A DNA stretch of 64,000 bases from Candidatus Enterocola sp. (GCA_045634045.1 JAZQZN010000003.1:2444-66443); one strand, 5' to 3'; shown: positions 7,643 to 57,063, counted from the first letter of the stretch. The notes: generated by a model not told the origin, from the letters alone. Translations and numbers: made by a program.

Positions 7643-9256
7643 ATGGCAACAACATTTAAGTACGAGCCCATGTTTCAGTTGGGCGAAGACAACACCGAGT
7701 ACTATTTGCTAACCAAAGACTATGTTTCGATGAGCGAATTTGAAGGAAAACCCATCCTTAAAATTGCGCCCGAAGGCTTAACCGCCATGGCCAATGCCGC
7801 TTTCCGTGACGTGTCTTTCTTGTTGCGCCGCGAGCACAACGAGCAAGTAGCCAAAATTTTGTCGGACCCTGAAGCATCCGAAAATGACAAGTACGTAGCC
7901 CTTACCTTCTTGCGCAACGCAGAGGTGGCAGCCAAAGGCAAATTGCCCCTTTGCCAAGATACCGGTACTGCTATTATCCACGGCGAAAAAGGCCAACAAG
8001 TATTTACCGAAGGCGAAGACGAAGAAGCACTTTCATTGGGTGTGTACAAAACCTATACAGAAGAAAACTTGCGCTATTCGCAAAATGCACCTCTTGATAT
8101 GTACAATGAGGTAAACACCAAATGCAACCTACCTGCACAAATTGATTTGCACGCATCTACTGGCATGGAATACCACTTCTTGTGCGTAACCAAAGGTGGT
8201 GGTTCTGCCAATAAAACCTATCTTTTCCAAGAAACCAAAGCGCTTTTGAACCCTGCTACTTTGGTTCCTTTCTTGGTAGAAAAAATGAAAACCCTAGGTA
8301 CTGCTGCTTGTCCTCCTTACCACATTGCATTCGTTATTGGTGGTACATCGGCAGAAAAAAACTTGCTAACCGTTAAATTGGCATCTACCCACTACTACGA
8401 CAGCTTGCCTACCACAGGTAGCGAAGGTGGTCGCGCATTCCGCGATGTAGAGTTGGAAAAACAAGTATTGGAAGAAGCCTACAAAGTAGGTTTGGGAGCA
8501 CAATTTGGTGGCAAATACTTGGCACACGACATCCGCATTGTTCGCTTGCCACGTCACGGTGCATCTTGCCCTGTAGGTATGGGTGTTTCTTGCTCTGCCG
8601 ACCGCAACATCAAATGTAAAATCAACAAAGACGGTATCTGGATCGAAAAATTGGACGACAATCCAAGCCGTTTGATTCCAGAAGAATTGCGCCAAGCTGG
8701 CGAGGGCAATGCTGTTCGTATCGACCTTAACCAACCTATGGAAGCCGTATTGGCTGAGTTGGATAAATACCCTGTAGCAACCCGTTTGTCGCTTAATGGT
8801 ACCATCATCGTTGGACGTGACATTGCACACGCAAAACTAAAAGAACGCCTTGATAACGGCGAAGATCTACCCGAATACATCAAAAACCATCCTATCTACT
8901 ACGCAGGTCCTGCCAAAACTCCAGCAGGCATGCCATGTGGTTCGATGGGTCCTACCACCGCAGGTCGTATGGACTCGTATGTAGGCCTATTCCAATCCAA
9001 AGGCGGTAGCAAAATTATGCTTGCTAAGGGTAACCGTAGCCAACAAGTAACCGACGCTTGTAAACAATACGGCGGCTTCTACTTGGGTTCTATCGGTGGT
9101 CCTGCAGCCATCCTTGCTCAAAACAACATCAAGAGCATCGAATGCGTTGAATACCCCGAACTAGGCATGGAAGCAATCTGGAAAATTGAAGTAGAAGATT
9201 TCCCTGCGTTTATTTTGGTGGATAATAAAGGCAACGACTTCTTTAAAACGCTTTAA
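7643..9256 (+). CDS. fumB: class I (Fe-S, FumA/FumB-type) fumarate hydratase
   Basis: 537-aa ORF. The N-terminal block [16 protein letters not shown] and overall length fit single-chain class I fumarases. Confidence 0.9.
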
Positions 9257-9264
9257 AATCATTT

Positions 9265-9331
9265 TACCCCGTAGGGGTATGCCTAATATTGTAACCCCGT
9301 GTTAAGGTTGTGCAGCAACCGCAACGCGGGG
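9265..9331 (+). repeat. REP-like structured repeat (copy B)
   Basis: TACCCCGTAGGGGT..TGTAACCCCGTGTTAAGG..CCGCAACGCGGGG, starting 8 nt after the fumarase stop. Confidence 0.8.
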
Positions 9332-9372
9332 TTATTTGTGCAAAACGCCCAACTAAGGAGTCATAAAAAAAA

Positions 9373-23514: not shown

Positions 23515-23547
23515 ATTGTGTATTTTTATTTTATTCTTACTAAGGTT

Positions 23548-26500
23548 CTATTTTTTGATAATTTCAGGATCGCAATCTTCGGTTACATCCATAAGGATAA
23601 TGTTGGCAGTAGCCTCGTTGTTGTCAACCGTACCGCACGCATTTTCGCCCGACACCTCGATGGTAGCCTTTACGTTGTATTGTTTGCTGCGCGCAGTGCC
23701 GTTGCCACCTGTGCCCCAGTCGGATGGACGAGGAATGCGGATGTTCAACATGTGTCCGCTTTCGCTAATGATGGCGCCGTCGGCATCCAACTCGTCGTGG
23801 CTAAGGGTATATTCGTAGCCTTCTGGAGCTTGTACGTTGATGTTGACTCCTTTCCATGGAGTGGTTTCTGCGTTGGCAGGCGATAGGATAAAGATGAGTG
23901 CCTGACCAGTTAGTTTGTCTAACTCTTCGGTTAGCTTAGGAATACGGTTGGTTACCCATGTGGTAATGGCACCCTTAGAGCCTTCGTGGGTGGTAGCAGC
24001 ACCGCAGTTCTCGCCAAATCCATAGTAGCCCATGGCTTTTGAACCAGTACATGAGCTGGTAGCACCACGACCAGTAGCAGTGTTGTCGTTAAATGGTAGC
24101 ATGGCCTCTTCGCGGTCAATGGCATCGTCCAATTCTTCTGCAAAGGCAGCTACTTTCTTAGAAATGTTGGCAGTGGTGAGCACGCCACCTTCGGCAGTAT
24201 AGGCCGCCCATTTACTTTTTACCGTACTCACAAAGCATGGGTCGTTTAGCAAACCACCAGTGATGCTGGTGCCGCCGCCTGTAAACCAGAATGGGGCTTT
24301 GAAATTGTCGCTATATACTCCGCTGTCTTTAATCAAAAGTCCGTCGGTGCTATGTGCGTTTTTTGCTGAAATATTGGCAGTAACGTTGTTGAAGCTTAGC
24401 TCTTGGTCCCAAAGGGGTTGTGCTTCAATTTTGTCGCCGTTGTACACAAATAGGCAGCTTGCACGGTAGGCATCCAAGTTTTTGGTATATTCGTTGATGA
24501 TGAACCAATCTGCCCAGCTGTTGTAGTCAATGAGTTGACGTACTTTTTCGTATTCTTTGTTGTAGAGCGCAGTTTCAAATTCTTCGAAACGTTCTTGAAT
24601 AATTTTATAAACACTGGTCCAGTTGCCACCTTCGTCTTCGATGTCTTCTTTTTCGGGGTATTCAATTTCGAAAAGTTGATCGACTTTGGTGTCGTAGGTG
24701 GTAATATCTTTTTTACCTGTACGGGTGGTGGCAAAGGTTTTTTGGTCGCCTTCGGTGTTTTCAACGCGGTCAACTTTGTCGGTTTTGTCGAATTTTACAA
24801 TAAAGCCGTTGTAGTCGGTAATGTTGACACGTTTTTCGTTCATCGTGATTTTGTCCATCAATACGTACACACCTTTGTATTCGTTGTTGATGATGAGCTC
24901 TACGTACATGGAGTTAACGCCCCATTTGCCAGTCATTTCTTTGTAGAGGTCAAATACCAAACGGTTACGCATCATAGAGGGGTCTGGGGTAGCTGCATAA
25001 AGCACCCAGTCTTTGTCTTTAGCACCGTCAGATAGTCCAAATAGGTTGGCTTTGCCCGTATCTACGTCGCCATCGCTGTTCTTGGTTTTTTCTTTACCTG
25101 TTACAAAGGCATACGATTTTTTCTTAAAGTTGAGCGACGACGAACCACGGTAGTTGATGCGTCCTTTGCGGTCGTATTGCAAGGTTCCATTGGGGTTATA
25201 GATGCGCACGTCAACCGAAATCTTCTTTTTCATGCCATCGATGTTGGTCGATGGGTAGTTTTGGCCCACAACTGAACATTCGTCAGGAAGCGATTTGCTA
25301 CCAGTGTTGATCGAAATAACAGGCATGTCAAAGTTGGCAAATGCGTTGATGGCAGGAGCAGTGCCTGTTGTGCCTGTCACTTGTAGGGCATTGGATGTTT
25401 GTGTTTCGTTGCTGCCTTCGTAGCTAATCAAACAGCGGTAGTAGCCCACCTTGTCGGCACGCCAGTTGTTACATGCCGCTGTTCCGTTTGTCATGCCTAC
25501 TGCTTTGTCTGCGTAGTTGGTGGTGCAATTTGCCCAGTCAGATGTGCCATTGGCAGAGAATTGCCATGTGTAGCCCTTAACGGCGGTGGCACCTGCTACG
25601 TCAACAATACCATCTTTTTGCACATACATGGGCACAAAGTCGGTGATGATGTTGGTGCAGAGTTTCAAATCGCCCAATTGAATGATTTTAACACCAGCTT
25701 CTTGCACCTCTAATGTAACTGGTTTAGAAGTTGCAGTTAATGCTGGACACACTTTGCTAGTTGCAGTTACGGTGTATTCATAATTGCGAGCCTCGCCAAT
25801 ATTTATTGTTGTTGCAGCTGTATAGTCTCCTGCTGATTTACCATCTTTTTTAATTGTATAGTTGAAATCAGGATCATAATTACTAACTGTTAATGTTGTA
25901 GGTTTGTTTTGACCTACTGGATTTGGAGAGATTGTAACCACAGGGGTTTGAGGAGCAGGATAAAGTGTTAATGATAATGTAGATGCATCAGAAGCACAAC
26001 CACCGTCTTCTATTCTTGCATAATATATTTTATTTGAACTAATACTTACAGTAGCAGAAGCAGGAGTATTACATTCTGGGTCAGAATACCACTTAACACC
26101 ATCTATTCCATTATTATAATCACTTAATGTGATGTTTGTATTTGGACAAACAACACCAGATGCTATAATGCCAGGGGCATCTGGAATCTCATCGCAAGTA
26201 GTTTTTACATCTTGCACTGCAGAGTAAGTAAATAGCTCTGAACATGTTTTGGTATTAGCAGATATGCGCACTTGATAATCAGAACCAGCCACTAAGTCTT
26301 CAATTGAACATGTTGCATTACCAGAACCCTTTAAGCTTTGATTACATTTTTTTGCATTAGCCCAATCTCCACCCTTCTCAATACACTCAACTACCATACT
26401 TTGTAAGTCGCTACCTGTAATGGTTGCTTGAACAGTAATGCCATAGCTATATGGAGTTATTTTAATACTAGATATAGTTGGAGTATAAATATTGACAGTT

Positions 26501-27681
26501 ACATATGAACTATTTGCAGAAGAGCATAAACCATCTTTTAATACAGCATAATATTGTGTTGTAGCGGAGATGCTCACGATAGTTGGGTCTGCCACTTTTG
26601 TACCATCTTTTTTATACCATTCTAATGTACCTGCACCGCTATCGGTTCTAGGGAATAGCTCATTTAAGTTAAAAGCAACATTTTTGCATGCAATTTTAGA
26701 ACTTACAGAGAAAGTAGGAGCCGCTATTGTTGGACAAGGAACTTCTACTTCCTTAGGTTCTGAAGAATAAACCCATGGACTTCCATAAATGTATGTTCTA
26801 AACTCGTATGTATTTCCTGCCTTAGGTGTAAATGTATCTGTATCTTCACCATCTACATCGGTTTGTTTTGTAACATAACCACTATTTGAATTTGGGTCAT
26901 TCTCTGCACACCATTCTTGACCTTTTATTCTCCATTGAAAACCATGATATTGTGTACCACAAGTAGTAAAGTTACCTACTAAACTGATAGTGCCATTTTG
27001 GTTTAATGTAGCAGATGTGATAGAGGTTGAAGGGGTGCAAGCTAGTTCCCATTGAGCATAAAGAGTAGCTGCCTCGTTTGCTGTATAAGAAGCACCTGAT
27101 GCATATGAAGTGCCTGTGCCGTCAGCTTTTGTATTCCAATTTTGGAAGGTGTAACCTGAACGAGTAGGTTCGGTTGTGCTCAGTGTCAAAGCTTTATCAT
27201 GATTTTTAGTTTGAGAAGAAGGAGCCTCAGAACCGCCATTTGCATTATAAGAAATAGTATATGTAGGTAAAGTTGCCTTTACATATGTTGTATTGGAACT
27301 TGTAACGTAATAGATAATTACAGTATATTTAGCAGTACTTGAAGCTAAGGTAAATTTAACGTTATCTCCTGTTACTGATGTGAAATTAGAAATCGAAGAA
27401 ACACCTGAAGAAGAACTAGTTGAAGTTTTTACCCAGTGCCAGTTGTTTCCATTTTCAACAATACGATACTCGTAGTTTCCTGCTGCAAGTTGAAAAGTTG
27501 CTGAAACAGTCCCCGAACCAGACATTGCATTTGCTGTTGTATTCCAGCTATTCATAGTGCCAGCTACATACATTGTAGCCCACACACTACTTGTTCCTAC
27601 AAGCATCATTAGGGCCATGATAAGCCACCTTGCGCTTAGGCGCGAGGTAAATTGTTTAAAATTGTTTGTAAAATTTTTCAT
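23548..27681 (-). CDS. giant secreted CotH-family (atypical kinase-like) protein with N-terminal CBM-like, Listeria-Bacteroides repeat and Cys-containing Ig-like modules (module A, component 1)
   Basis: 1377 aa. Sec signal peptide. YTISYNANGGSEAP...GYTFQNWNTKADGTGTSY...LYAQWE is a Listeria-Bacteroides (Flg_new) repeat. CotH blocks lie at ~24390-25230: RINYRGSSSLNFKKKSYAF, DKDWVLYAATPDPSMMRN, YKGVYVLMDKIT, FEIEYPE, ADWFIINEYTKNLDAYRAS, PLWDQELSF. No T9SS tail was recognised. Confidence 0.85.
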   Translation of the reverse strand: MKNFTNNFKQFTSRLSARWLIMALMMLVGTSSVWATMYVAGTMNSWNTTANAMSGSGTVSATFQLAAGNYEYRIVENGNNWHWVKTSTSSSSGVSSISNFTSVTGDNVKFTLASSTAKYTVIIYYVTSSNTTYVKATLPTYTISYNANGGSEAPSSQTKNHDKALTLSTTEPTRSGYTFQNWNTKADGTGTSYASGASYTANEAATLYAQWELACTPSTSITSATLNQNGTISLVGNFTTCGTQYHGFQWRIKGQEWCAENDPNSNSGYVTKQTDVDGEDTDTFTPKAGNTYEFRTYIYGSPWVYSSEPKEVEVPCPTIAAPTFSVSSKIACKNVAFNLNELFPRTDSGAGTLEWYKKDGTKVADPTIVSISATTQYYAVLKDGLCSSANSSYVTVNIYTPTISSIKITPYSYGITVQATITGSDLQSMVVECIEKGGDWANAKKCNQSLKGSGNATCSIEDLVAGSDYQVRISANTKTCSELFTYSAVQDVKTTCDEIPDAPGIIASGVVCPNTNITLSDYNNGIDGVKWYSDPECNTPASATVSISSNKIYYARIEDGGCASDASTLSLTLYPAPQTPVVTISPNPVGQNKPTTLTVSNYDPDFNYTIKKDGKSAGDYTAATTINIGEARNYEYTVTATSKVCPALTATSKPVTLEVQEAGVKIIQLGDLKLCTNIITDFVPMYVQKDGIVDVAGATAVKGYTWQFSANGTSDWANCTTNYADKAVGMTNGTAACNNWRADKVGYYRCLISYEGSNETQTSNALQVTGTTGTAPAINAFANFDMPVISINTGSKSLPDECSVVGQNYPSTNIDGMKKKISVDVRIYNPNGTLQYDRKGRINYRGSSSLNFKKKSYAFVTGKEKTKNSDGDVDTGKANLFGLSDGAKDKDWVLYAATPDPSMMRNRLVFDLYKEMTGKWGVNSMYVELIINNEYKGVYVLMDKITMNEKRVNITDYNGFIVKFDKTDKVDRVENTEGDQKTFATTRTGKKDITTYDTKVDQLFEIEYPEKEDIEDEGGNWTSVYKIIQERFEEFETALYNKEYEKVRQLIDYNSWADWFIINEYTKNLDAYRASCLFVYNGDKIEAQPLWDQELSFNNVTANISAKNAHSTDGLLIKDSGVYSDNFKAPFWFTGGGTSITGGLLNDPCFVSTVKSKWAAYTAEGGVLTTANISKKVAAFAEELDDAIDREEAMLPFNDNTATGRGATSSCTGSKAMGYYGFGENCGAATTHEGSKGAITTWVTNRIPKLTEELDKLTGQALIFILSPANAETTPWKGVNINVQAPEGYEYTLSHDELDADGAIISESGHMLNIRIPRPSDWGTGGNGTARSKQYNVKATIEVSGENACGTVDNNEATANIILMDVTEDCDPEIIKK

Positions 27682-27785
27682 AAATATCGATATTTTGTTT
27701 GTTTATTTTGTTCGTGTTTACACGTGTTATTTTCGTTTGGTTTCACCCTCGCTGCGCTTCGGGTGAGGGAGGGGCGCTTTCCTAT

Positions 27786-27850
27786 CCCTGCGTTGCGCTC
27801 GCAAGCTCGCTTAACACAGGGTTATTACCAAGGACAACCCCTGCGGGGTA
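27786..27850 (-). repeat. REP-like structured repeat (copy C)
   Basis: CCCTGCGTTGCG..CTTAACACAGGGTTA..ACCCCTGCGGGGTA (reverse orientation), 1 nt downstream of the PD-(D/E)XK gene stop. Confidence 0.85.
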
Positions 27851-27851
27851 A

Positions 27852-28478
27852 TTAAAAGCTTGCATCGCCCCAACGATACCAAAATTCATTAAAAAGGTCA
27901 CTTTCGGTTTGTATGTCGTTTTCGAGTAACTCATAAAACGAAAACAATTTGAATGCTGGTTTGGTATCGACTTCTGCTAGGTTGCCAAAATGCCTTATAA
28001 AAGGTGCGCTATTTCTTTCTAAACAGGTTATTAGGGCGTAATGCTTTTGCCACGTTTCTGATTGACTGTTATAGTGCGCATCGAACTTATTTTTGTACGC
28101 TACTAACTGATTCCTTTTTACGCCATCTATATCGGTTGCATCGTGCAAGCCTGTCAAATACTTGTTTTCTATTAGCAAGGCGTATTTGGTTATCTCGCCC
28201 CTTTGCTCTACATCAACCTCTACTCGCAAATCAATATCCTCCCACTGTTTCCAAACTTTTACGTTGCTAAAGATTACATCGTCTGTGTTTTCTATACTCA
28301 ATAACTTGCCAAGCATAAACCTGCAATGGCTGTATAGAATGGGTTTTTCGTCCTTGCAAATACCATCTGCTCTGCGCAAGCACCACGATATTACATAATC
28401 CATCATGCATTCTGCTTTGCCATTTTTCTCGGTCTGATCAACCATCAATTGAGGCATATCCGTTCTGTTGCTTTTCAT
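27852..28478 (-). CDS. PD-(D/E)XK nuclease-superfamily protein (PDDEXK_4-like), first gene of arm A
   Basis: 208 aa. E..(MDYVISWCL).. IDL .. LLIENKY gives an E / D / ExK arrangement, and QLVAYK follows. Paralog at 30995-31621. Confidence 0.6.
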   Translation of the reverse strand: MKSNRTDMPQLMVDQTEKNGKAECMMDYVISWCLRRADGICKDEKPILYSHCRFMLGKLLSIENTDDVIFSNVKVWKQWEDIDLRVEVDVEQRGEITKYALLIENKYLTGLHDATDIDGVKRNQLVAYKNKFDAHYNSQSETWQKHYALITCLERNSAPFIRHFGNLAEVDTKPAFKLFSFYELLENDIQTESDLFNEFWYRWGDASF

Positions 28479-28538
28479 TGCGTTTGTTTTAGGTATTTAC
28501 GTCCCATCACTCCCGAAGCATAGTATCTTCTTTCCTAT

Positions 28539-28603
28539 CCCTGCGTTGTGCTCGCAAACTCGCTTAACACAGGGTTATTACTAAGGACAACCCCTGCGGG
28601 GTA
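28539..28603 (-). repeat. REP-like structured repeat (copy D)
   Basis: CCCTGCGTTGTG..CTTAACACAGGGTTA..ACCCCTGCGGGGTA, 60 nt upstream of the PD-(D/E)XK start. Confidence 0.85.
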
Positions 28604-28968
28604 AGTTCTCGCTCCTAACTCCAAAACCGTCGGTTTCATCGGTGATTTTGGGACGCTACTGCCCATAGATTAACACAGGATCTCTTAACAAGAGAGCATT
28701 GATCACATCGCACAAAGAGCTCATAATTAGACAACAAGCCCGTGAGCCTATTGTAGGCGGGGTATTGGCTTTTAATCCGCTGAAAATCAATAATTTAACC
28801 GCTCTAAAATCTGCGCATAGTTATAGTCTAATCCGCACAAAGTTACGGACTATCAGTCACTTATGCAAACTTTTATTAAGTTTTTTTATAAATTAGGGTG
28901 ATTTTTAACGTTAGATTTTTACTGCCTTATGCTGATCGCGTTGGAGTGCTGCCATTAGAGCGGTATTG

Positions 28969-29190
28969 CTACAAAAAAACCTGCCGTTGTAGGGGCAGGT
29001 TGGTATGAGGATTGAGGGGGGGGGAGAAAAGATTATGATTTCTTACATCGTTGCTGCTATTTGCATATTCTTTTTCATATAAGCTACAGCGTCTGCAGAG
29101 TTCATGGGCGATTTCTTTAATTCTGCAATTTTCTGTAGTTTTCGCATCACCGCTTCTTGATGAAAGGTATTCAAATATTTCATTGTTCAT
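28969..29190 (-). CDS. hypothetical 73-aa protein
   Basis: ORF 28969..29265, trimmed to MNNEIFEYLSSRSG because a -7 box lies 20 nt upstream. No family recognised. The 3' end reads through a C9 tract and the terminator hairpin, so the true stop is uncertain. Confidence 0.35.
   Translation of the reverse strand: MNNEIFEYLSSRSGDAKTTENCRIKEIAHELCRRCSLYEKEYANSSNDVRNHNLFSPPLNPHTNLPLQRQVFL
28973..29001 (-). terminator. hairpin terminator (AACCTGCC-N8-GGCAGGTT + T-run on the minus strand)
   Basis: Stem 28978-28985 / 28994-29001, with an A-run at 28973-28979 on the plus strand. One of three related hairpins in the core. Confidence 0.6.
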
Positions 29191-29210
29191 ATTATTTCGT
29201 TTTCCTTTCG

Positions 29211-29218
29211 CAAATATA
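29211..29218 (-). promoter_or_regulatory. -7 promoter box TATATTTG (minus strand)
   Basis: The complement of CAAATATA matches TAnnTTTG, 20 nt upstream of the ATG at 29190. Confidence 0.45.
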
Positions 29219-29251
29219 CAATTTTTATTCATCCATCGCAAAGAGAACAAT

Positions 29252-29279
29252 AAAAAACCTGCCACATATTGGGCAGGTT
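29252..29279 (-). terminator. hairpin terminator (AACCTGCC-N8-GGCAGGTT + T-run on the minus strand)
   Basis: Stem 29256-29263 / 29272-29279, with an A-run at 29252-29257 on the plus strand. Confidence 0.6.
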
Positions 29280-29363
29280 ATTGAGTTAATTACGATTTTT
29301 TCTTTTTGCTAGGAAAAATACTTATTCCTGTAAATAAACAAACTAGTGCTATATTCAAGTAAT

Positions 29364-29465
29364 TTATGCATCTTTTTTGTTAGCTCTATACATTGCAATT
29401 AAAACGCATATTATACCGATTACAGAGATTGCTATTACGTATGCAAATAAATAAATTAGTGCCAT
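29364..29465 (-). CDS. 33-aa hydrophobic peptide (single TM + basic C-terminus)
   Basis: Hand-translated, below the ORF-track cutoff: MALIYLFAYVIAISVIGIICVLIAMYRANKKDA. The ATG lies 1 nt after the stop of the upstream membrane ORF, which suggests translational coupling. Confidence 0.45.
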   Translation of the reverse strand: MALIYLFAYVIAISVIGIICVLIAMYRANKKDA

Positions 29466-29466
29466 A

Positions 29467-29691
29467 TTATGCTCCTTTCTTTTTGTTAGATTTAGATAAT
29501 AAAACAAGCATTATTCCTAAAAGTGAGGATAATATTGATGCCAATATTCCCATTGTTAATAAAATTTGATTACTCAGGGTCTCAATTTGCATTACAACTA
29601 CCAACACAATGCCTCCAAATACTAGTTTTGACATGTCTAGCATGTACTCGCCCGATTTTATCAGGACTAATTCTCTTGTTTTCTTGTTCAT
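29467..29691 (-). CDS. 74-aa two-TM membrane protein
   Basis: ORF 29467..29763, trimmed to MNKKTRELVLIKSGEYMLDMSKLVFGGIVLVVVMQ...LGIMLVLLSKSNKKKGA. Two hydrophobic helices and a Lys-rich tail. A -7 box lies 30 nt upstream. Confidence 0.5.
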   Translation of the reverse strand: MNKKTRELVLIKSGEYMLDMSKLVFGGIVLVVVMQIETLSNQILLTMGILASILSSLLGIMLVLLSKSNKKKGA

Positions 29692-29720
29692 AAAAGATTG
29701 AATTAAATGGTTTGATTTCG

Positions 29721-29728
29721 CAAAGGTA
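29721..29728 (-). promoter_or_regulatory. -7 promoter box TACCTTTG (minus strand)
   Basis: The complement of CAAAGGTA matches TAnnTTTG, upstream of the ATG at 29691. Confidence 0.45.
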
Positions 29729-29763
29729 TAGATTATTGATATACTAAGCAAGGTTTGTCGCAC

Positions 29764-29792
29764 AAAAAAACTGCCGTTGGTGCGGCAGGTTT
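29764..29792 (-). terminator. hairpin (CTGCCG-N6-CGGCAG + T7 on the minus strand), related to the two hairpins above
   Basis: Stem 29771-29776 / 29783-29788, with an A7 run at 29764-29770 on the plus strand. It sits between the divergent promoters of the core. Confidence 0.45.
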
Positions 29793-29871
29793 GGTAAAAG
29801 GATTATCGCACAAAACTTGGGCACGGATGATTAGACGAATAGGATTACTTGATTTTATAATTTATTTCCGT

Positions 29872-29879
29872 TACCTTTG
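29872..29879 (+). promoter_or_regulatory. -7 promoter box TACCTTTG for the toxin-antitoxin-like pair
   Basis: Matches TAnnTTTG, 32 nt upstream of the ATG at 29911. Confidence 0.45.
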
Positions 29880-29910
29880 TGGCATATTCATCCATTTAAT
29901 TCTTTACATT

Positions 29911-30087
29911 ATGAACAGAAAACCAAAAGAGCCGTATTTTCAAGGCACAGAGCCTGTTTACGGCAAGGCGGCAAAACGCCTACATCGTCTAATTATGAAC
30001 CCTCCCAAGGCTACTCCCGAGGAAAAAGAAAGAATGAGACAGAATTGCGAGTATTTTAAAAGTATCTCAACTTGTAAATTGTTATGA
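29911..30087 (+). CDS. 58-aa protein, putative antitoxin partner of the GNAT toxin (family not recognised)
   Basis: ORF 29755..30087, trimmed to MNRKPKEPYF downstream of the -7 box. Its stop overlaps the GNAT start (ATGA, 30084-30087). The sequence does not look like DUF1778 to me. Confidence 0.4.
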   Translation: MNRKPKEPYFQGTEPVYGKAAKRLHRLIMNPPKATPEEKERMRQNCEYFKSISTCKLL

Positions 30088-30617
30088 ATTCATTTCTTCA
30101 AAACCGCAGGTTTCGCCAATTAGAAGAGGGCGAAATTATAAAATCGTTCAACTGCGGTGATGCTGAGTTGAACGATTTTATTTTAACCAAAGCTGATCTG
30201 TACAAAAAATCATTGCTATCCGTAACGTATATACTTGAAGAAGGCGATGTTACGCTTGCTTACTTTTCGTTGTCAAACGATAGTCTTCGACACGAAAACT
30301 TTCGCAACACATCTTCATTTAATCGATTAAATCGTAGAATAAATAACGCGAAGCGAATGCGCGAATATCCAGCCATTAAAATAGGCAGATTTGCGGTGAA
30401 CAATGATTGCAAACACAGTCGCATGGGCAGTTCTTTATTAGACCATATCAAATTGTCTCTTATCGAAAACCCACAATCTGGTTGCCGTTTTATTACGGTC
30501 GATGCCTATAACGATGCGGTGGGTTTCTACCAGCGCAACGGCTTTATGCTGGTCAATGAATTCCAAGCGGACAGGCGCACGCAACCCATGTTTTTTGACT
30601 TAGCGCAGCTGCTGTAA
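30084..30617 (+). CDS. GNAT-family acetyltransferase of the TA-toxin type (TacT/AtaT-like)
   Basis: 177 aa. The N-terminal FNCGDAELNDFIL, then YPAIKIGRFAVNNDCKHSRMGSSLL and NDAVGFYQRNGF, follow the pattern of GNAT toxins. It is 4-nt coupled to a small upstream ORF. Confidence 0.6.
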   Translation: MNSFLQNRRFRQLEEGEIIKSFNCGDAELNDFILTKADLYKKSLLSVTYILEEGDVTLAYFSLSNDSLRHENFRNTSSFNRLNRRINNAKRMREYPAIKIGRFAVNNDCKHSRMGSSLLDHIKLSLIENPQSGCRFITVDAYNDAVGFYQRNGFMLVNEFQADRRTQPMFFDLAQLL

Positions 30618-30648
30618 TCAGCAACAAAACTACAGTAATTTATAGTTG

Positions 30649-30690
30649 AATTACCACTTCAATTAACACGATTGATGTGGTAATTTTTTT
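30649..30690 (+). terminator. rho-independent terminator after the GNAT gene
   Basis: AATTACCAC..GTGGTAATT stem followed by a T-run ending at 30690. Confidence 0.7.
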
Positions 30691-30868
30691 ATGTCTTCAC
30701 ATTCTGCATTTTTACGTCTATATCCTACTTATTACCCGTTACTTTTCTACAAAACAAGTAGTGCATTTTAACAAACTCTCTTGTTAAGAGATCCTGTGTT
30801 AATCTATGGGCAGTAACGCCCCAAAACCACCGATGAAACCGACGGTTTTGGAGTTAGGAGTGAGAACT

Positions 30869-30933
30869 TACCCCGCAGGGGTTGTCCTTGGTAATAACCC
30901 TGTGTTAAACGAGCTTGCGAGCGCAACGCAGGG
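30869..30933 (+). repeat. REP-like structured repeat (copy E)
   Basis: TACCCCGCAGGGGTTGTCCTTGGTAATAACCCTGTGTTAAACGAGCTTGCGAGCGCAACGCAGGG. Confidence 0.85.
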
Positions 30934-30994
30934 ATAGGAAAAGGTGGGACTATGCTTCGTGAGTGATGGGACGTAAATACCTAAAACAAACGCA

Positions 30995-31621
30995 ATGAAA
31001 AGCAACAGAACGCACATGCCTCAATTGATGGTTGATCAGACCGAGAAAAATGGCAAAGCAGAATGCATGATGGATTATGTAATATCGTGGTGCTTGCGCA
31101 GGGCTGATGTTATTTGCAAGGACGAAAAACCCATTCTATACAGCCATTGCCGTTATATGCTTGCCATGCTGTTGGGTCTGCCAGATTATAGCAACCTATT
31201 GTTTCGTGATGTAAAAGTATGGAAGCAAAATCAAGAAATTGATTTGTGGGTAGAGTTGAAGGTTGAAGAAGATGGGTTGTTGACAAAGCATGCCATACTA
31301 ATAGAAAACAAGTATTTGACGGGCTTGCACGATGCAACCGATGTAGATGGTGTAAAAAGGAATCAGTTAGTAGCGTACAAAAATAAGTTCGATGCGCACT
31401 TTAACAGTCAATCAGAAACGTGGCAAAAACATTACGCCCTAATAACCTGTTTAGAAAGAAATAGCGCACCTTTTAAAAGACATTTTGGCAACCTAACAGA
31501 AGTCGATACCAAACCAGCATTCAAATTGTTTTCGTTTTATGAGTTACTCGAAAACGACATACAAACCGAAAGCGACCTATTCAACGAATTTTGGTACCGT
31601 TGGGGCGATGCAAGCTTTTAA
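30995..31621 (+). CDS. PD-(D/E)XK nuclease-superfamily protein (PDDEXK_4-like), first gene of arm B
   Basis: 208 aa. Differs from the 27852-28478 product at 32 positions, 26 of them within aa 54-101. Confidence 0.6.
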   Translation: MKSNRTHMPQLMVDQTEKNGKAECMMDYVISWCLRRADVICKDEKPILYSHCRYMLAMLLGLPDYSNLLFRDVKVWKQNQEIDLWVELKVEEDGLLTKHAILIENKYLTGLHDATDVDGVKRNQLVAYKNKFDAHFNSQSETWQKHYALITCLERNSAPFKRHFGNLTEVDTKPAFKLFSFYELLENDIQTESDLFNEFWYRWGDASF

Positions 31622-31622
31622 T

Positions 31623-31687
31623 TACCCCGCAGGGGTTGTCCTTGGTAATAACCCTGTGTTAAGCGAGCTTGCGAGCGCAACGCAGGG
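31623..31687 (+). repeat. REP-like structured repeat (copy F)
   Basis: Differs from copy E at one position by eye. Starts 1 nt after the PD-(D/E)XK stop. Confidence 0.85.
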
Positions 31688-31791
31688 ATAGGAAAGCGCC
31701 CCTCCCTCACCCGAAGCGCAGCGAGGGTGCAACCAAACGAAAATAACACGTGTAAACACGAAAAAAATAAACAAACAAAATATCGATATTT

Positions 31792-34700
31792 ATGAAAAAT
31801 TTTACAAACAATTTTAAACAATTTACCTCGCGCCTAAGCGCAAGGTGGCTTATCATGGCCCTAATGATGCTTGTGGGAACAAGTAGTGCGTGGGGAAAAG
31901 ATTTTTATTTAATTCCTGGGTGTTGGGATACAGATGGTGCTAAATACTCTGTCAATTACTTTGGAGGAACAGGAGTGACTCAAAGTTTTACAGATTTTGC
32001 TGAATCTGTTACTATAGGTGAAAAAACATACTATAAAGTAACAGGTGTGCATGATAATGCAACAACAATTATCTGGGTTAGACATAATAGTTCCGCCACA
32101 AAACCATCATGGGATAACAAATGGAATCAAACTAATGACATAACTGTAAAAGCTAATTATAATGTTGTTGAAATTACAGGATGGGATCAATCAAACTATA
32201 AATATTCGACAAAAGTAACAGAATGCAACGCTGTAACAAAACCTACAATTACCCTAGCTTCTAGTCCTGTAAAATGTGGAGTATATGTTACTGCGGGCTT
32301 AATTACTATTGATGGTTATGATGCTAACACATATACTTATACTTTAAACAAGGATGGTAATGCTACAACTATTGTATACAACGATGGTTATGCTATTACC
32401 GAAGAAGGTTCATATACAGTTACTGCAGATGTGTCTGAAAATTCTTGTGGAGCTCAAACTTCTGAGCCTCAAGAAGTGACTGTTACTGACAATACACCAA
32501 CCATTAATAATTTTGCCGTAACGGCTGCTTCTGATAAAGTTTGTAAAGGAAGTTCTGTAAAACTTACTGCAACTTATGTTAATGGCGCTACTTATGCTTG
32601 GTACAAAGGCGATTCTGCAACACCTATAAGTAGTGCTACTGAATATATCTATTCTCCAATAATCACAGAGAATTCAACATTTAAAGTGGTAGTAACTAAA
32701 ACCAATAATGGATGTCCTGCAACAGCAGAAGCTACAAGCACAATTCAAGTAATAGAGCCTGCTGCCGCTCCAACTCTTAACCCAACTAGCGCGACTGTTT
32801 GTGGTGGCGAAGCGTTTGAACTTCCAAATATAGACGGAGTTACATGGAGTTTGGACGATGAAACTACAATAGTTAACCAACCTGGTATTGCAAATAATAC
32901 AGATGCAGCTATTATTAAAACATTCCAGGCCGTGAAAGAAGTTGACGGTTGCCCTTCTGCACCTGCAGACTATAAGGTTACCGTTAACCCAACTCCTGTT
33001 ATTACTGGCGAAAGCGTAGCTCAACCAGGCAAGACAAATGCTATCACATTAAAATTACAAGGAACACTTGAAGCAACTTGGAAAATTAGTGGTGGCGATA
33101 TTGATAAAGCACAAGGAAATAGCATTCAATTCTCTGCAGAAACAAACGACATCTACACTATTACCGCAACTACCGAAGAGGACTGTTTTGCTACTCATGT
33201 AGTTACTGTAGCAGATGCATTCTACATTTGGGTACGTAATGCGAAAGAAAGTGATACTGCATATGGTCAGTTTTACTATCCTAACGAGAACTCAGAAGCA
33301 GTTCGTGGTGGTGAGATGTTCTATGCAGAATGTGATAACCTTCCTACAAATGGAAATACTCTACTAGATACACACTATAAAAATTATAACAAAGGTGGGC
33401 GCAAAGCTGATTTAGTAAAAGACGACTGCGACGGATACATATGGTATGGTTTTAAAGCTAGTGCAGACGTAATAGCAGGTACTAAATATTTCTATGTTCA
33501 TGCTACAAATGACCTAAGTGATGGTGGCTACTATACCCACTCAAAACCACTAAAGAGCGCCTTATCTGGTGATGTATATTATACACTAGGAACTACTGGA
33601 GATAGTTATAGTGGTTGGAATCTATCAACTGCTTCTGCTCCTTACGCAGGTCCTAAGGTTCACGCTTCTGGTGATGCTAAATTCAATGCAAACAACTTTG
33701 CAGATTTCGTTTCACTATACGTAACAGACTGTTCAGGTAATGAAGTTATAGGTTATCAATGGAGTTATACAGCACCAACATGTACTTATATTGGTAAGGA
33801 AACTGTAACTATGAGTGCTTCTACTTCAAACAATATACGTGTACGTGAAGCTGGAGATTACACTTGTACTGTAACATACAAAGATGGTAATACAGCAACA
33901 TCTCCAGCGTTAACAGTTTCTATAGGTGCAACCAACACACCAGCACTAGCAGAATTCACATCAAACCTACCAATTATTATGGTTAACACCAATGGCGAAG
34001 GTTTCCCAGATTGTACAGGTTTGAGCGGTCAAACTGCATCAAAAAATGCTTCTACATTGAAGGCTAAACGTTCTGTTGACGTAATTATCAAAGATGGCAA
34101 CAACATTATTTACGACCGCAAAGCTCGTATGAACTATCGTGGTTCTTCTTCTCTAAACTTTGTGAAGAAATCTTACGCATTCTGCCCTGGTGAAGCAGAT
34201 TGCGTGGAAGATAAGGGACGTCAAGACTACGTTAAAACAGCTAAATTGAATATGTTAGGTTTAGGCGAGGCTTATGATAAAGATTGGGTTCTTTACGCAG
34301 CTGCAGCAGACCCTTCACTTATGCGTAACCGTCTTGTATTTGATTCATACACTGCTATGACTGGTGAATGGGGTGTACAAAGCCGTTATGTTGAACTTAT
34401 TGTAGACGGCGAATACAAAGGTGTTTACGTGTTTATGGATAAAATAACCATGAACGATAATCGCGTAAAGGTAAACAAAAATACAGGATTTATTGTAAAA
34501 TTTGATAAGACAGATAAGGAAGACCGTATAGGTGGTTATAACGGTGTGTATGGAGATGAAAAAACTTTTGCTACCGATTTAACAGGACGCAAGGACATTA
34601 GTACATACGATACATCAGTAGACCAACTATTCGAAATTGAATATCCAGAGAAAGACGATTATCCAACTGGTTGGGGTAATAGAACTACCGCAATTAAGAA

Positions 34701-35781
34701 CATGTTCAATAACTTCGAGAATGCACTTAAAGATGGTGATTTTACTACCGTTCAACAATACATTGACTACACATCTTGGGCAGATTGGTTTATTATAAAC
34801 GAATATACCAAAAACGTAGATGCCTACAGAGCAAGTTGTATCTTCGTTTATACAGGCGAAGCAGGTGCTAAAATTGAGGCTCGTCCACTTTGGGACCAAG
34901 AGTTGAGTTTTAACAATACAGCAACAACAGTGGGTAATGGTAAAGCATGTAATAGCACCTCAGGATTACTAGTTGAACATGACGAGGTTTATAAAGATGG
35001 TTTCCCTGCTCCATTCTGGTTTACTGGTAATTATTCTACTTCAAATGGTCAGTTTACTAAAGACAAATACAAAGGACTACTTGACGACCCTTGCTTCGTA
35101 CAAGTAGTAAAAGAACGTTGGGAAACTCACAAAGCAGGTGCATTGAGCGAAGCTTCACTACAAGATCGTATCACTGAGTACTACAATGATTTAGCAGATT
35201 ATGACGAATCAACTAAGACATACGCACAAACAAGTGCTAAAACTCGTGAGGAGGCGTTCTGGACTAATAAAAGTCGTGGTGCTTGCGATTGTAGTTATGA
35301 TACAACAAATGATACTGCAACTGGTTATTCTAATGTAACCATGGATGATTCTAAAGGAACTATGGACACATGGGTACTAGATGCTCAACGTAGAGCAGGC
35401 TTATCAACAGCATTGAGCGGTTTAACTGGTACTACAATGAATATTCAAATTATTCCATCTTCTCAAGAAACAACACCATGGGAAGCAGCTACAATTACTA
35501 TTAACAAATCTGAAGGTTATGACTATACTTTAGAAAATGATTTAGAGGCGGTTAGTGGTGTAGTAGTACAAAAAAATGGTCAAAGCATAACATATCGCAT
35601 ACCTCGTCCTGCAAGCTGGGGTACTGGAGATGGCAATGATGGTCGTGAGGATGTTACCTATACCATAACTGCTACCCTAAACGTAGCAGACGGAACTATG
35701 GTTTGTGGTACTACAACAGCTCCAAGTTCAACTGCTACCATTATCCTTCAAGACGAAAAAGATGAGAATTGTCCTCAATAA
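31792..35781 (+). CDS. giant secreted CotH-family (atypical kinase-like) protein (module B, component 1)
   Basis: 1329 aa. The first 32 aa are identical to the 1377-aa paralog. N-terminal CBM-like module and Cys-containing Ig-like repeats. CotH blocks lie at ~34067-34911: RMNYRGSSSLNFVKKSYAF, DKDWVLYAAAADPSLMRN, YKGVYVFMDKIT, FEIEYPE, ADWFIINEYTKNVDAYRAS, PLWDQELSF. No T9SS tail. Confidence 0.85.
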   Translation: MKNFTNNFKQFTSRLSARWLIMALMMLVGTSSAWGKDFYLIPGCWDTDGAKYSVNYFGGTGVTQSFTDFAESVTIGEKTYYKVTGVHDNATTIIWVRHNSSATKPSWDNKWNQTNDITVKANYNVVEITGWDQSNYKYSTKVTECNAVTKPTITLASSPVKCGVYVTAGLITIDGYDANTYTYTLNKDGNATTIVYNDGYAITEEGSYTVTADVSENSCGAQTSEPQEVTVTDNTPTINNFAVTAASDKVCKGSSVKLTATYVNGATYAWYKGDSATPISSATEYIYSPIITENSTFKVVVTKTNNGCPATAEATSTIQVIEPAAAPTLNPTSATVCGGEAFELPNIDGVTWSLDDETTIVNQPGIANNTDAAIIKTFQAVKEVDGCPSAPADYKVTVNPTPVITGESVAQPGKTNAITLKLQGTLEATWKISGGDIDKAQGNSIQFSAETNDIYTITATTEEDCFATHVVTVADAFYIWVRNAKESDTAYGQFYYPNENSEAVRGGEMFYAECDNLPTNGNTLLDTHYKNYNKGGRKADLVKDDCDGYIWYGFKASADVIAGTKYFYVHATNDLSDGGYYTHSKPLKSALSGDVYYTLGTTGDSYSGWNLSTASAPYAGPKVHASGDAKFNANNFADFVSLYVTDCSGNEVIGYQWSYTAPTCTYIGKETVTMSASTSNNIRVREAGDYTCTVTYKDGNTATSPALTVSIGATNTPALAEFTSNLPIIMVNTNGEGFPDCTGLSGQTASKNASTLKAKRSVDVIIKDGNNIIYDRKARMNYRGSSSLNFVKKSYAFCPGEADCVEDKGRQDYVKTAKLNMLGLGEAYDKDWVLYAAAADPSLMRNRLVFDSYTAMTGEWGVQSRYVELIVDGEYKGVYVFMDKITMNDNRVKVNKNTGFIVKFDKTDKEDRIGGYNGVYGDEKTFATDLTGRKDISTYDTSVDQLFEIEYPEKDDYPTGWGNRTTAIKNMFNNFENALKDGDFTTVQQYIDYTSWADWFIINEYTKNVDAYRASCIFVYTGEAGAKIEARPLWDQELSFNNTATTVGNGKACNSTSGLLVEHDEVYKDGFPAPFWFTGNYSTSNGQFTKDKYKGLLDDPCFVQVVKERWETHKAGALSEASLQDRITEYYNDLADYDESTKTYAQTSAKTREEAFWTNKSRGACDCSYDTTNDTATGYSNVTMDDSKGTMDTWVLDAQRRAGLSTALSGLTGTTMNIQIIPSSQETTPWEAATITINKSEGYDYTLENDLEAVSGVVVQKNGQSITYRIPRPASWGTGDGNDGREDVTYTITATLNVADGTMVCGTTTAPSSTATIILQDEKDENCPQ

Positions 35782-35820
35782 ATTTAGAACCTTAGTAAGA
35801 ATAAAATAAAAATACACGAT

Positions 35821-38800
35821 ATGAAAAGATTTTATAACAATACATTAATAAGTGGGGCTTTCAGTAAAGCCCTACGAGTTATAGCCTTACTTTGCGTTCT
35901 ATTGGGCGTAAGCAGTAGTGCGTGGGGGGTAACATATTATATTGATGCAAGTTGTATATCAGGTGTACAACAAATTAGTTGGTTACAATATCAAAATGGT
36001 GGTGGAGATCTTATTTCTCAAAATACAAATTTTGATGGAAAAACTGCATTTCAGTTTACTGCTGATGCGGGTAAAACATTAAAATTACAACTTAAGATTG
36101 TGTCTGGGAATAGCACAACCTACCCAAATGAATATGACATTAATTTAACAGGGAATAATAACTGTATTGAGTTAGAATTAAACAACGGCCAATTAAGTTA
36201 TACACAAAAAGTATATAGTAGCTTAAAATGTGCTGGAGCTTGTACTCCTTCTGCTACCATAACAGGTGCTTCTTTATCTGCAGATAAAAAAACTATTACT
36301 TTATCGGGTAGTTTGACCACCGTTTGTAGTGCCACAGACACATATTATGGTTGGCAATATTGTACAGACGGCAAATCTTGGTCTGAATCTAATTACGTAG
36401 CAGGGGCACCTAATAACGCACATCATTCCCCTACGCCAGTTAACGATTACAGCAATACATGGGCAGGTCCTTCAGGTGGTCTAGTTCCTGGTACAACCTA
36501 TTATTTTAGAGCCTATGCATATGTAGATGGCACATTCTATTCAGATAACAATACCCGTTCAGTTACTATCCCATCTTCTGGTAGTGGCGATGTAAATTGT
36601 AGCAATATAGTTTATTTGGATCCTAATAATATTTGGAATAAAGATGGTGCTTGGTTTGCAGCACGTTTTTGGAATGATGCAGGAGATAAGTGGGTAGAGA
36701 TGAAAGCAACATCTTGCGGAAACATTTACTATGCTGAAATTCCTGATGGATATGTTAAAGTTATCTTTGTGAGAATGAATCCAAACAATTCTCTTGCTGA
36801 TGGATGGAATGGGAGATGGAACCAAACAGTTGATTTGACAGTTGATAATCAACTTTTTACTATTACAGGGGGACAAGACAACTCATATACAGGTTCATGG
36901 GGGACAACAGATTGTACCGAAGGTTGTACTCAGACAGATGTTGCAACCAACGTGCTACTTTCTCGCGAAGCCATTGTAAACAAATCCGTTAAAACCGCAC
37001 AACTTTTTGGTTACCTAAAAGCTACAAATTGTAATAGATATACCATTTATGGTTTCTACTATTGCATGGTAAACGATGGTGAAGCTCCTTGTATCCCATC
37101 TACTAGTAGCGATAGCTTAGCGGTTAGTAGCACTGAACAATTGCCACGTGGCAAAGAATTTACTGCAACAGCAAAAGATTTACAAGACGGCAAGACCTAC
37201 TACTATCGTGCTTACGCAACGAGTGATAAGGGTACAATCTTATCAGAAGAAATTCGCTCATTTAGCACCGACCCTTGTATCCCTCAATACGGTGGTTTGT
37301 CTGATAAATACAATGGTAAACCTATTGTATATACCATCAATGCCGACCCTGCATTTGCAGCAAACGACTGTAAATTGCACTTTAACTCATTGCAAGCTGC
37401 TATCGACCACCTAAAAGCAACCCATACAAGAGATGATGACTTTAAGTATGTAACTTTGAGTAATGGTTCTTATAATTTGAATCAACCAGTAGAAATGCGA
37501 GTAGTTTACTACGATGATACCCCAGATGATAATACTAAAACTTATATCTATAGAGGTAAAGAGATAGGTGTAAACGAATCTTTTGTCTATGCTGGTGACG
37601 ACAAACCTGCAAATGCCAATCTGATTCAGGATTTTAATAAATCAGGAGCAGATGCCAAAAATACACTATCTATTAAAGCAGGTAGCGATAAAGCAAAACC
37701 TTGGGTTCACCACATTGTAATACGTAATAGTAAGAACATACTATTAGACTCTCTATGTATTTATTCTGATCCAAAAGATTATGATGCAACAAAAGATGGT
37801 AATCAACTAAAAAGTGATAACGCTTTAGAAATAGACATCAATACAACCAAATGGAATATGGTTGAAGTGCAAAGCGATTGCAATTCGTATACAAGATCAG
37901 ATAATGATGGTACCTTTACATTTACCAACATGTGCGATGCTAATATTGTGATACAAAACTGTATGATTGGTTCTGCTGGTTTTACAGGATTGCACCTATC
38001 TGCATACGATGGTATTACCTTTAAAAACAATGAATTTGAAGCCATATTTAGTGCTCAAGCAGATAATGTGAAGCATAGAAATATGATTAATTATGGTGCT
38101 TCAGCTAAATTTATTGCATGTAAAAACATTAAGTTTATTCAAAATAACTTCCGTGGCTCGCACCCTACACTAATGTGGTTGCAAGAGTGTCAGAATGTAC
38201 TTATTATGAATAATGTATTCTGGTACACCAATGAATTAGACAAGAAAAATGGATCTGATGCCAATGCGGATACACCTGACAATGCTGCATTGCGACTTGT
38301 ACACCAATTTGGTGCAAAAGATAGTGTAGAAAACGTTGCTGCTTATTATAATACATTCTATGTAGCAGAAACCGATGTAAAAGATAAGTACAACTTCTTG
38401 TATTTTTCTAATACAGTTAATAATAATAGTTCATCGAATGGGAAATTTAAAATTAGTACTATTTATTTCAAATATAACAATTGTTATAGCTACGATTCTG
38501 GAGTTCCAGGAAGATCTAATAGTAATAAGACTATTAAGGATAATACTAGAGAAACCAGTGCCACAATTAACGAACCTTTCTTAGGTAAGGACGTAGCGAC
38601 AGACAATTTCTGTCCTAACAACTTCTGGAGTCAATATGACGAGGATAAAGGAAACGAGACTTCTGCCTTTGCATTTGGCTGTACAGATAATGAATTTATA
38701 AACGTTAAAAGCCAAGTATGTTCTACTACAGCATCTGGTCCAGCTTCATTAATAGTAAAAAGTAAAGGTATGGACTATGGTGATAAACCTGATATTAGCA

Positions 38801-41230: not shown

Positions 41231-41337
41231 TGTGTTGTTATAGTATATCCATTCGCTTAAAGGATGCATGAGGGCAGCGGAGAAGCTGATTTTATACTTT
41301 TTTTAGCAAACGTATGCAATTATCGGAAAAAAATGCG

Positions 41338-41345
41338 TACATTTG
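41338..41345 (+). promoter_or_regulatory. -7 promoter box TACATTTG for module copy C
   Basis: Matches TAnnTTTG, 35 nt upstream of the ATG at 41381 and downstream of the copy-B terminator. Confidence 0.45.
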
Positions 41346-41380
41346 GGCAGTTACTTTGTAAAATCTTAAAAATCAATAGT

Positions 41381-56978: not shown

Positions 56979-56987
56979 AAAAACCAT

Positions 56988-57052
56988 TACCCCGCAGGGG
57001 TTTACCTAATTGTAACCCTGTGTTAAGGGAGCAAAGCGACCGCAACGCAGAG
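56988..57052 (+). repeat. REP-like structured repeat (copy G)
   Basis: TACCCCGCAGGGGTTTACCTAATTGTAACCCTGTGTTAAGGGAGCAAAGCGACCGCAACGCAGAG, 9 nt after the peptidase stop. Confidence 0.8.
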
Positions 57053-57063
57053 AATAAGAAACC

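Follow-up and report, generated by a model that had tools for sequence, protein, structure and literature searches.

Kilobase-sized DNA segments that invert between short sites, so that their orientation selects one of two surface proteins, are classically represented by the cargo-carrying H segment of Salmonella (Hin), G segment of phage Mu (Gin) and pilin inversion of Moraxella (Piv). The invertons of Bacteroidales are usually only a few hundred base pairs long and consist of a promoter only. Here, we examined a 64,000-nucleotide stretch from Candidatus Enterocola sp. (GCA_045634045.1 JAZQZN010000003.1:2444-66443; the whole stretch is hereafter the window), in which a 4.3-kb region lies between two divergent operons for giant, type IX secretion system (T9SS)-associated proteins. 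On balance, we hold it probable, though not strongly so, that this region carries an invertible island with a promoter, delimited by a conserved 15-bp site and flipped by a recombinase whose gene is unlinked to the locus.

The locus resembles the Hin, Gin and Piv systems in the size of its segment, in its short inverted sites and in an orientation that would pick between surface proteins, but those systems encode or adjoin their own recombinase and none is linked here. Moreover, Hin relocates the promoter of one operon, and Gin and Piv exchange the 3' ends of coding sequences, whereas two complete divergent operons are present in the window. The vsa, vsp and vlp systems of Mycoplasma likewise combine very different surface-protein genes with a nearly invariant 5' leader and signal peptide, and likewise involve DNA rearrangement. 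In contrast to them, every arm seen here has a complete head, with no silent promoterless cassettes seen; the predicted signal-peptidase site is exactly where the conserved block stops, and the genes encode giant CotH proteins of Bacteroidales, associated with T9SS. The invertons of gut Bacteroidales, e.g., the capsular-polysaccharide and antibiotic-resistance-gene switches (PMC8748976), share with this locus a segment between short inverted repeats; their -33 TTTG / -7 TAnnTTTG promoter, pointing outward into a surface-structure operon, has a candidate counterpart here, and the two orientations that they show in nature are known for this kind of locus from a pair of related genomes. Compared with these known invertons, the locus is larger and bears cargo, has two operons to serve and lacks an invertase gene next to it: the segment spans 2.1-4.3 kb with genes of toxin-antitoxin and defence type, the island stands between two divergent operons and would choose an arm rather than switch one on or off, and the site is a 6-3-6 palindrome adjoined by nuclease cassettes. 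If this reading is correct, uncultured gut Bacteroidales (Candidatus Enterocola and Paludibacteraceae relatives) would flip a kilobase-sized island to select between alternative giant CotH/T9SS surface proteins, and the idea of the inverton would be widened to cargo-bearing islands, to the selection of one operon out of two and to sites without a linked invertase. What is gained is a testable 15-bp site, a defined candidate promoter and a giant-protein family with signal-peptide codons conserved even at synonymous sites.

The features on which this reading depends are as follows.

27579-28696 and 30776-31894, reverse complements by BLASTN: left and right inverted repeats (IR-L and IR-R)
28681-28695, minus strand: boundary palindrome TCTCTTGTTAAGAGA, left copy, at the inner end of IR-L; candidate inversion site
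30777-30791, plus strand: boundary palindrome TCTCTTGTTAAGAGA, right copy, at the inner end of IR-R
28697-30775: core, candidate invertible segment of 2.1 kb, a variable island of toxin-antitoxin and defence-type genes as judged by comparison of genomes
28838-28869, minus strand: candidate promoter P by consensus match, with -33 TTTG, a 20-nt spacer and -7 TAACTTTG; reads from the core into IR-L
23548-27681, minus strand: left CotH giant gene, 1377 amino acids, with CotH and Flg_new domains
18391-23514, minus strand: left second giant gene, 1707 amino acids, with a T9SS type A C-terminal sorting domain and a CBM26 match
31792-35781, plus strand: right CotH giant gene, 1329 amino acids
35821-40644, plus strand: right second giant gene, 1607 amino acids, with a T9SS type A sorting domain

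Under the proposed mechanism, the 4.3-kb region would be made up of a head, an invertible core and a second head, and the core would hold cargo of toxin-antitoxin type together with one strong outward promoter, P, at a single end. If the two palindromes recombined, the core would turn round and P would then read into the opposite operon. A site-specific recombinase with its gene elsewhere in the genome would be the likely agent; in the window genome, the long repeats could also recombine by homology, which might additionally support inversion and gene conversion. The anatomy of the region, the conserved site, the single P of each divergent pair and, between two related genomes, a reciprocal inversion at the site are observed; a frequent or programmed inversion, an active P, control of operon choice by orientation and the kind of enzyme at work are parts of this scheme that we infer.

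Of the two edges of the repeat, the inner one, marked by the palindrome, carries the most weight. Only two copies of TCTCTTGTTAAGAGA, inverted with respect to each other, occur in the window, even when 2 mismatches are allowed, and an inverted pair is likewise present at loci L001, L003, L006 and L081 from other genomes. The exact 15-mer was found at the boundary between core and head in 14/14 junctions examined, at nine loci and with a constant core-to-arm polarity, while the sequences on either side of it belong to four or five unrelated families. The heads of L005, L007, L014, L020 and L067-L069 have the nuclease gene described below but not TCTCTTGTTAAGAGA.

Two related genomes differ by an inversion at this site. 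When L003 is compared with L006, the left arm (98.8% identity) and the nuclease head (91.9%) both align in forward orientation, whereas all matches within the core are reversed. The junctions are reciprocal: L003 reads endA-PAL-armX and endB-PAL-armY, and L006 reads endB-PAL-armX and endA-PAL-armY, where PAL is the palindrome, with only ~19 nt around it common to all four junctions. The compared stretches, from a 645-kb scaffold (L003; ERZ28633552) and a 499-kb contig (L006; ERZ27236851), are free of Ns. The difference is a genuine reciprocal inversion at the palindrome site. An assembly artefact is unlikely for this pair because the ~19-nt repeat is shorter than a sequencing read. Furthermore, the 1.1-kb repeat is not required for inversion, since one arm in the L003/L006 lineage has no nuclease gene and no long repeat at the site. 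The original prediction, which had expected the core to flip by recombination between the repeats, therefore holds as to the flip, the whole core being opposite in L003 and L006, but not as to the place, as the crossover lies inside the ~19-nt palindromic site, which it had mentioned only as a small hairpin, and not in the long repeat.

A second comparison involves L065 and L001, whose cores are 98-99.6% identical; an arm body, 90-97% identical, adjoins the P side of the core in L001 but its GNAT acetyltransferase side in L065. This arrangement fits a possible swapping of arms or cores, and it is consistent, though no further than that, with the suggestion of the original prediction that recombination could produce chimeric giant genes.

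Promoters were sought with the Bacteroidetes -7 box TAnnTTTG, a sigma-70 scanner being set aside because Bacteroidetes promoters differ. P was the only good head-directed promoter in the window scan, where it is single-copy and lies ~140 nt from the left palindrome; on the plus strand, no consensus -7 box was found between the terminator-like hairpin of the GNAT gene and the right CotH start. The form TTTG-N20-TAnnTTTG is the Bacteroidales promoter consensus (PMC8748976). In L001, L003, L006, L061 and L081, the P sequence occurs on one side only, directed outward, 159-165 nt from the palindrome, and each divergent pair (the window, L001, L003, L006 and L081) has one P adjoining a palindrome; in L065, P reads toward the contig end, and a palindrome is out of view there. 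The head next to P carries the nuclease gene in L003 and lacks it in L006 and L081, and a flip of the core would therefore move P between operons. The earlier view of one 5' control region common to the two arms is thus doubtful, given that the sole consensus promoter lies in the core, outside the repeat and on one side.

Each of the 1.1-kb repeats forms the head module at the start of a giant-protein operon, in which a CotH protein is followed by a T9SS-sorted protein. Outward from the core, the order is the palindrome, ~75 nt including a hairpin, a first 74-nt element (E1), the nuclease gene, a second 74-nt element (E2) that begins directly after the nuclease stop codon, a 96-nt leader and 35 CotH codons.

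27852-28478, minus strand: PDDEXK_4-family nuclease gene, left copy, 208 amino acids, assigned from homologues and motif
30995-31621, plus strand: PDDEXK_4-family nuclease gene, right copy, 208 amino acids, assigned from homologues and motif
28531-28604, minus strand: E1-L, 74-nt repeat 5' of the nuclease gene, from repeat search
27778-27851, minus strand: E2-L, 74-nt repeat immediately 3' of the nuclease gene, from repeat search
30868-30941, plus strand: E1-R, 74-nt repeat, from repeat search
31622-31695, plus strand: E2-R, 74-nt repeat, 74/74 identical to E2-L
27682-27777, minus strand: left leader, from E2 to the CotH start codon, 94/96 identical to 31696-31791
31696-31896, plus strand: right leader and signal-peptide block of the right CotH gene, at the outer end of IR-R
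27577-27681, minus strand: signal-peptide block, codons 1-35 (MKNFTNNFKQFTSRLSARWLIMALMMLVGTSS..W), at the outer end of IR-L, 96% identical to 31792-31896

The original prediction had described these arms as near-identical reverse complements. That they are reverse complements was borne out by BLASTN, which also set their ends as listed, but near-identity was too strong a word: 85 mismatches and 7 gap openings in the 1122 columns of the single alignment leave 91.8% identity, the two nuclease proteins are 85% identical in amino acids, and nuclease codons 55-100 are only 64% identical in DNA. Identity is in fact a mosaic, amounting to 95.7% from the palindrome to E1, 94.6% in E1, 95.1% in nuclease codons 1-54, 64.1% in codons 55-100, 95.4% in codons 101-209, 100% in E2, 97.9% in the leader and 96.2% in codons 1-35 of the giant open reading frame (ORF), followed by 54%, i.e., alignment noise, in its codons 36-135. 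This drop agrees with the abrupt loss of similarity within the CotH ORFs that had been reported, and so do the identical first 32 CotH codons and the 170-nt leader with 2 differing positions; a motif scan placed the hairpins of the inner ends at the coordinates given for them (28681-28695 and 30777-30791). The repeat itself is secondary, a by-product of the nuclease cassette: it is 1.1 kb long in the window because both heads carry that cassette, and in relatives with one head lacking it, the repeat adjoining the site is only ~20 nt. The proposal that the repeats have been kept alike by gene conversion or are recent was only partly right, as the signal-peptide block is conserved across many genomes and the nuclease genes are mosaics of alleles common to several genomes. 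Concerted evolution was considered for the four head copies of the window and L001; there was no clean clustering within genomes, only mosaic patches, and pair-specific gene conversion is therefore not claimed.

At the outer end of the head, MKNFTNNFKQFTSRLSARWLIMALMMLVGTSSAW is encoded by a block that spans about -15 to +105 of the giant ORF. Nearly unchanged in nucleotides, this block recurs in L001, L003, L004, L006, the Candidatus Enterocola metagenome-assembled genome L020 and ten metagenome contigs (L055-L064), in at least 17 arms from other genomes, each time attached to a different giant protein. The point at which similarity stops is always the predicted signal-peptidase site. Since the block recurs elsewhere and always ends there, the outer end of the repeat does not mark a breakpoint peculiar to this genome. 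At 4-fold degenerate sites of conserved residues, identity is 90-100% inside the block vs 33-57% in the rest of the ORFs; conservation of this kind points to a possible function at the RNA or DNA level, or to continual recombination. A second type of signal peptide (type B) reads MKNFTKQNFKT.PLWIRL...

The nuclease family comprises 215 detected homologues, the distant ones of which carry PF14281 (PDDEXK_4), including those of 51-53% identity (P0108-P0120) and a Bacteroides homologue. The PD-(D/E)XK assignment made earlier gains from these homologues and from residues D83, E104 and K106, i.e., the catalytic D ... (D/E)-x-K motif, which are invariant in 23 sequences; the window proteins themselves have no Pfam match at E ≤0.01, which tempers it. 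An AlphaFold2 model (pLDDT 73) was matched best by Foldseek in the PDB to CinB, MspJI, AspBHI, Shedu and PaqCI, all weakly (E >1e-3, TM-score <0.4). A sequence search of the nuclease against the PDB gave no match, and PADLOC returned only a sub-threshold match to PDC-S26. No record was identical in protein sequence to the window's nuclease copy or to P0004. The cassette is optional: the heads of L003-left, L006-left, L057 and L058 are without the gene, and in the empty heads of L003-left and L006-left, the palindrome is joined straight to the leader. The divergent patch of codons 55-100 (28176-28320 in the left copy) surrounds catalytic D83. In this patch, the right window copy matches both L001 copies and the left copy differs, and both alleles, as well as hybrids of them, recur in other genomes, a pattern suggestive of shuffled alleles or of diversifying selection in what may be a specificity region. 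In Bacteroides and Prevotella, the distant homologues stand beside a WYL regulator or defence-type genes and not beside CotH genes.

Several observations weigh against an invertible island and have to be set beside the L003/L006 inversion. Opposite orientations are known from assemblies of different samples and never within a single population, and the window and L001 share one orientation. As the original prediction had noted, no recombinase domain is present in window ORFs of at least 150 amino acids; nor do the called genes of the palindrome-pair loci L001, L003, L006 and L081 include a serine or tyrosine recombinase domain, while the Bacteroidales invertible promoters described in PMC8748976 all have an adjacent invertase. 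P is a candidate promoter by consensus match alone; the other arm may not be silent, because the non-P ends carry near-consensus GAnnTTTG boxes, and P may be an ordinary promoter of island cassettes, because P-like copies recur inside cores. The L065 case is not a clean reciprocal event, as the first ~850 nt of the giant ORF differ too and the repeats are long enough to mislead short-read assemblers. Finally, the palindrome of L003, L004 and L006 is followed by seven Ts on the nuclease arm, so that a terminator or operator role is also possible. A static inverted duplication is the first rival reading. Paralogous 5' regions (leader, signal peptide and nuclease) would be held alike by purifying selection with occasional gene conversion, the palindrome would be an operator or terminator, and the L003/L006 flip would be a rare accident without a regulatory role. 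The signal-peptide block, conserved in all arms of all genomes, fits selection better than a role in recombination, and the terminator-like palindrome with its Ts, the lack of a recombinase gene in the window ORFs and locus gene tables, and the orientation common to the window and L001 argue in the same direction. Such a duplication does not readily explain, however, why the exact 15-mer is kept while both of its flanks are replaced by unrelated sequence, why its polarity is fixed and its position is exactly that of the crossover in a reciprocal inversion, or why each pair has a single outward promoter that may occur on either side. Homologous recombination across ~19 nt is, moreover, inefficient. 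We regard a static duplication as possible but doubtful.

The cassette could instead drive the exchange itself. A selfish PDDEXK_4 nuclease, homing-type or restriction-like, would target the palindrome, and its breaks would drive gene conversion and possibly flipping; an empty head would be cut and repaired from an occupied one, whereby the cassette would be copied to the second arm and the 1.1-kb repeat would arise. The optional cassette, which lies directly on the arm side of the palindrome, and the empty heads that join palindrome to leader are as expected under such a scheme, and dimeric PD-(D/E)XK enzymes cut sites such as 6-3-6 palindromes. The invariant catalytic D, E and K, a gene that is a mosaic of alleles common to several genomes, and top fold matches that are all nuclease domains (CinB, MspJI, AspBHI, Shedu and PaqCI) speak for it as well. 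Yet every fold match has E >1e-3, the window copies lack an above-threshold PADLOC or Pfam match, the heads of L005, L007, L014, L020 and L067-L069 carry the gene without the palindrome, and the distant homologues, among those examined, stand beside WYL regulators and in defence-type neighbourhoods and not at palindromes. We consider a nuclease-driven cassette unlikely. It is rather improbable, judging from sequence, that the PDDEXK_4 protein itself acts on TCTCTTGTTAAGAGA, such that its breaks would flip the island, carry copies of the cassette into empty heads and initiate exchange among giant-gene cassettes; if it did, the locus would be a nuclease-driven system of phase and antigenic variation, with this enzyme in place of a serine or tyrosine recombinase. 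Mis-assembly of the repeat or of the core orientation, for its part, would gain some plausibility from a source that resembles a metagenome-assembled contig, and from E2, leader and signal-peptide codons, which form ~275 nt of near-identity (6 mismatches) that could confuse a de Bruijn assembler. Against this, the same two-head architecture appears in the independent sample of L001 and palindrome-bounded divergent pairs appear in L003, L006 and L081, and the repeat is not a collapsed one because 85 positions, and a whole patch, set its copies apart. An artefact is, in our view, scarcely credible, and the invertible, promoter-bearing island remains the reading that we prefer.

The core and a second inverted block provide further features.

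29467-29763, minus strand: DUF6722 small protein, recurrent cargo
29911-30617, plus strand: putative type II toxin-antitoxin pair made up of a 58-aa ORF and a 177-aa GNAT acetyltransferase; a TACCTTTG box of its own stands at 29872-29879
30650-30691, plus strand: terminator-like hairpin and T-run after the GNAT gene, inferred by reading the sequence
23408-23555: second inverted block, left copy, spanning the junction of genes 1 and 2 and ~35 signal-peptide codons of giant gene 2; partner at 35780-35927

The content of the core differs by genome and includes GNAT, PIN, Zeta, HipA, Abi_2, NTP_transf_2, DUF6722 and Kinase-PolyVal; DUF6722 is also found in the cores of L001, L003, L005, L006, L065, L069 and L081. 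In the window, the core contains the DUF6722 gene, the pair of small ORF and GNAT gene, and terminator-like hairpins. Copies of the P motif occur inside cores and are all co-oriented within a locus (L003: 6710, 8910 and 9777, plus strand; L006: 5702, 7385 and 8933, minus strand). Direct repeats are present between small core cassettes, e.g., L003 7109-7377 matches 8518-8789. Based on its sequence, the core island looks like an array of promoter-plus-gene cassettes.

The 74-nt element, which the original prediction had missed, forms a direct repeat around each nuclease gene, with four copies that differ by ≤3 mismatches where 0 would be expected by chance. Diverged copies at 7247-7312, 9264-9333 and 56987-57053 (plus strand) bring the total in the window to 7, and the element is therefore a dispersed intergenic repeat. 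It is GC-rich, has the form TTACCCCGCAGGGG...GTGTTAAG...CGCAACGCAGGG, and frequently lies a few nucleotides past a stop codon. In these respects, i.e., short length, GC-richness, hairpin potential and an intergenic position often after stop codons, it resembles repetitive extragenic palindromic (REP) sequences and bacterial interspersed mosaic elements (BIMEs). It differs from them in having no covariation support, no Rfam family and no transposase of the REP-associated tyrosine type (RAYT) in the window, and in flanking the nuclease gene with two direct copies, an arrangement specific to this lineage. As a structured RNA, it pairs in 84% of cells, yet covariation was no better than in a shuffled control. 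Rfam yielded no family at gathering score in the window and, at E ≤5 in 27000-32500, only chance-level matches of terminator-like hairpins in the core. An integron attC site was ruled out by inspection: such a site requires R''(RYYYAAC) ... R'(GTTRRRY) at the 3' end of a cassette and an integron integrase, whereas in the element GTTAAGC and GCGCAAC stand in reversed order, 9 nt apart, and no integrase is present in the window.

The second inverted block had likewise been missed by the original prediction; its copies (23408-23555 vs 35780-35927) are 148 nt long and 91% complementary. The 3' ends of the second giant genes, with the T9SS domain, are also conserved between arms and genomes, and the variable gene bodies thus sit between conserved blocks. 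TIGR04183 matched the second giant gene of each arm (left protein, residues 1644-1707, E 4e-7), and a scan of the CotH giant genes gave no match to it. Predicted hairpins occur at about +30 to +55 from the AUG in three unrelated signal-peptide coding regions, namely type A (window 31822-31847), type B (L003 ~5317-5340, minus strand) and the second giant genes (window 35852-35875 and 23460-23483), the hairpin of the second inverted block lying at about +31 to +54. Among the changes in them, one C-to-U change retains a G-U pair and one is compensatory. The hairpin may be an RNA-level element close to the start codon, as far as these predicted structures indicate.

A third CotH giant gene of 2930 amino acids (41264-50056) stands in tandem after the right arm, without a head module, palindrome or type A/B block. 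The flanks of the window are housekeeping genes (PolA, fumarase, EF-Ts, S2, IspG and CdaA). Viral contigs gave one distant match, with no pattern of palindrome plus element, and a phage origin was rejected on these grounds.

At ~position 10004 of L031, L034, L037 and L038, from Bacteroides, PDDEXK_4 homologues follow a WYL-WCX regulator and precede zinc-ribbon and DUF805 proteins of unknown kind and an AAA_14/DUF4143 ATPase, as a conserved set. With its weak PADLOC match to PDC-S26, this neighbourhood may be an uncharacterised defence-type module. In L005, L007, L067, L068, L078 and L079, a dockerin/EF-hand protein of ~165-175 amino acids is encoded between the nuclease and CotH genes, which hints at an assembly of these Bacteroidales surface proteins of the cohesin-dockerin type. 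In the literature, we found nothing on the palindrome site, on PDDEXK_4 in such a context or on CotH with dockerin in Bacteroidales. Finally, 11 kb of head and arm, 99.95% identical between L068 and L069 (also L070, L073 and L076), occur in two wholly different upstream contexts, either downstream of another giant gene with AbiE genes or beside arginine-biosynthesis genes, each in at least two samples. The breakpoint lies ~400 nt upstream of the nuclease gene, in a lineage without TCTCTTGTTAAGAGA, and the comparison suggests a rearrangement bounded by the head.

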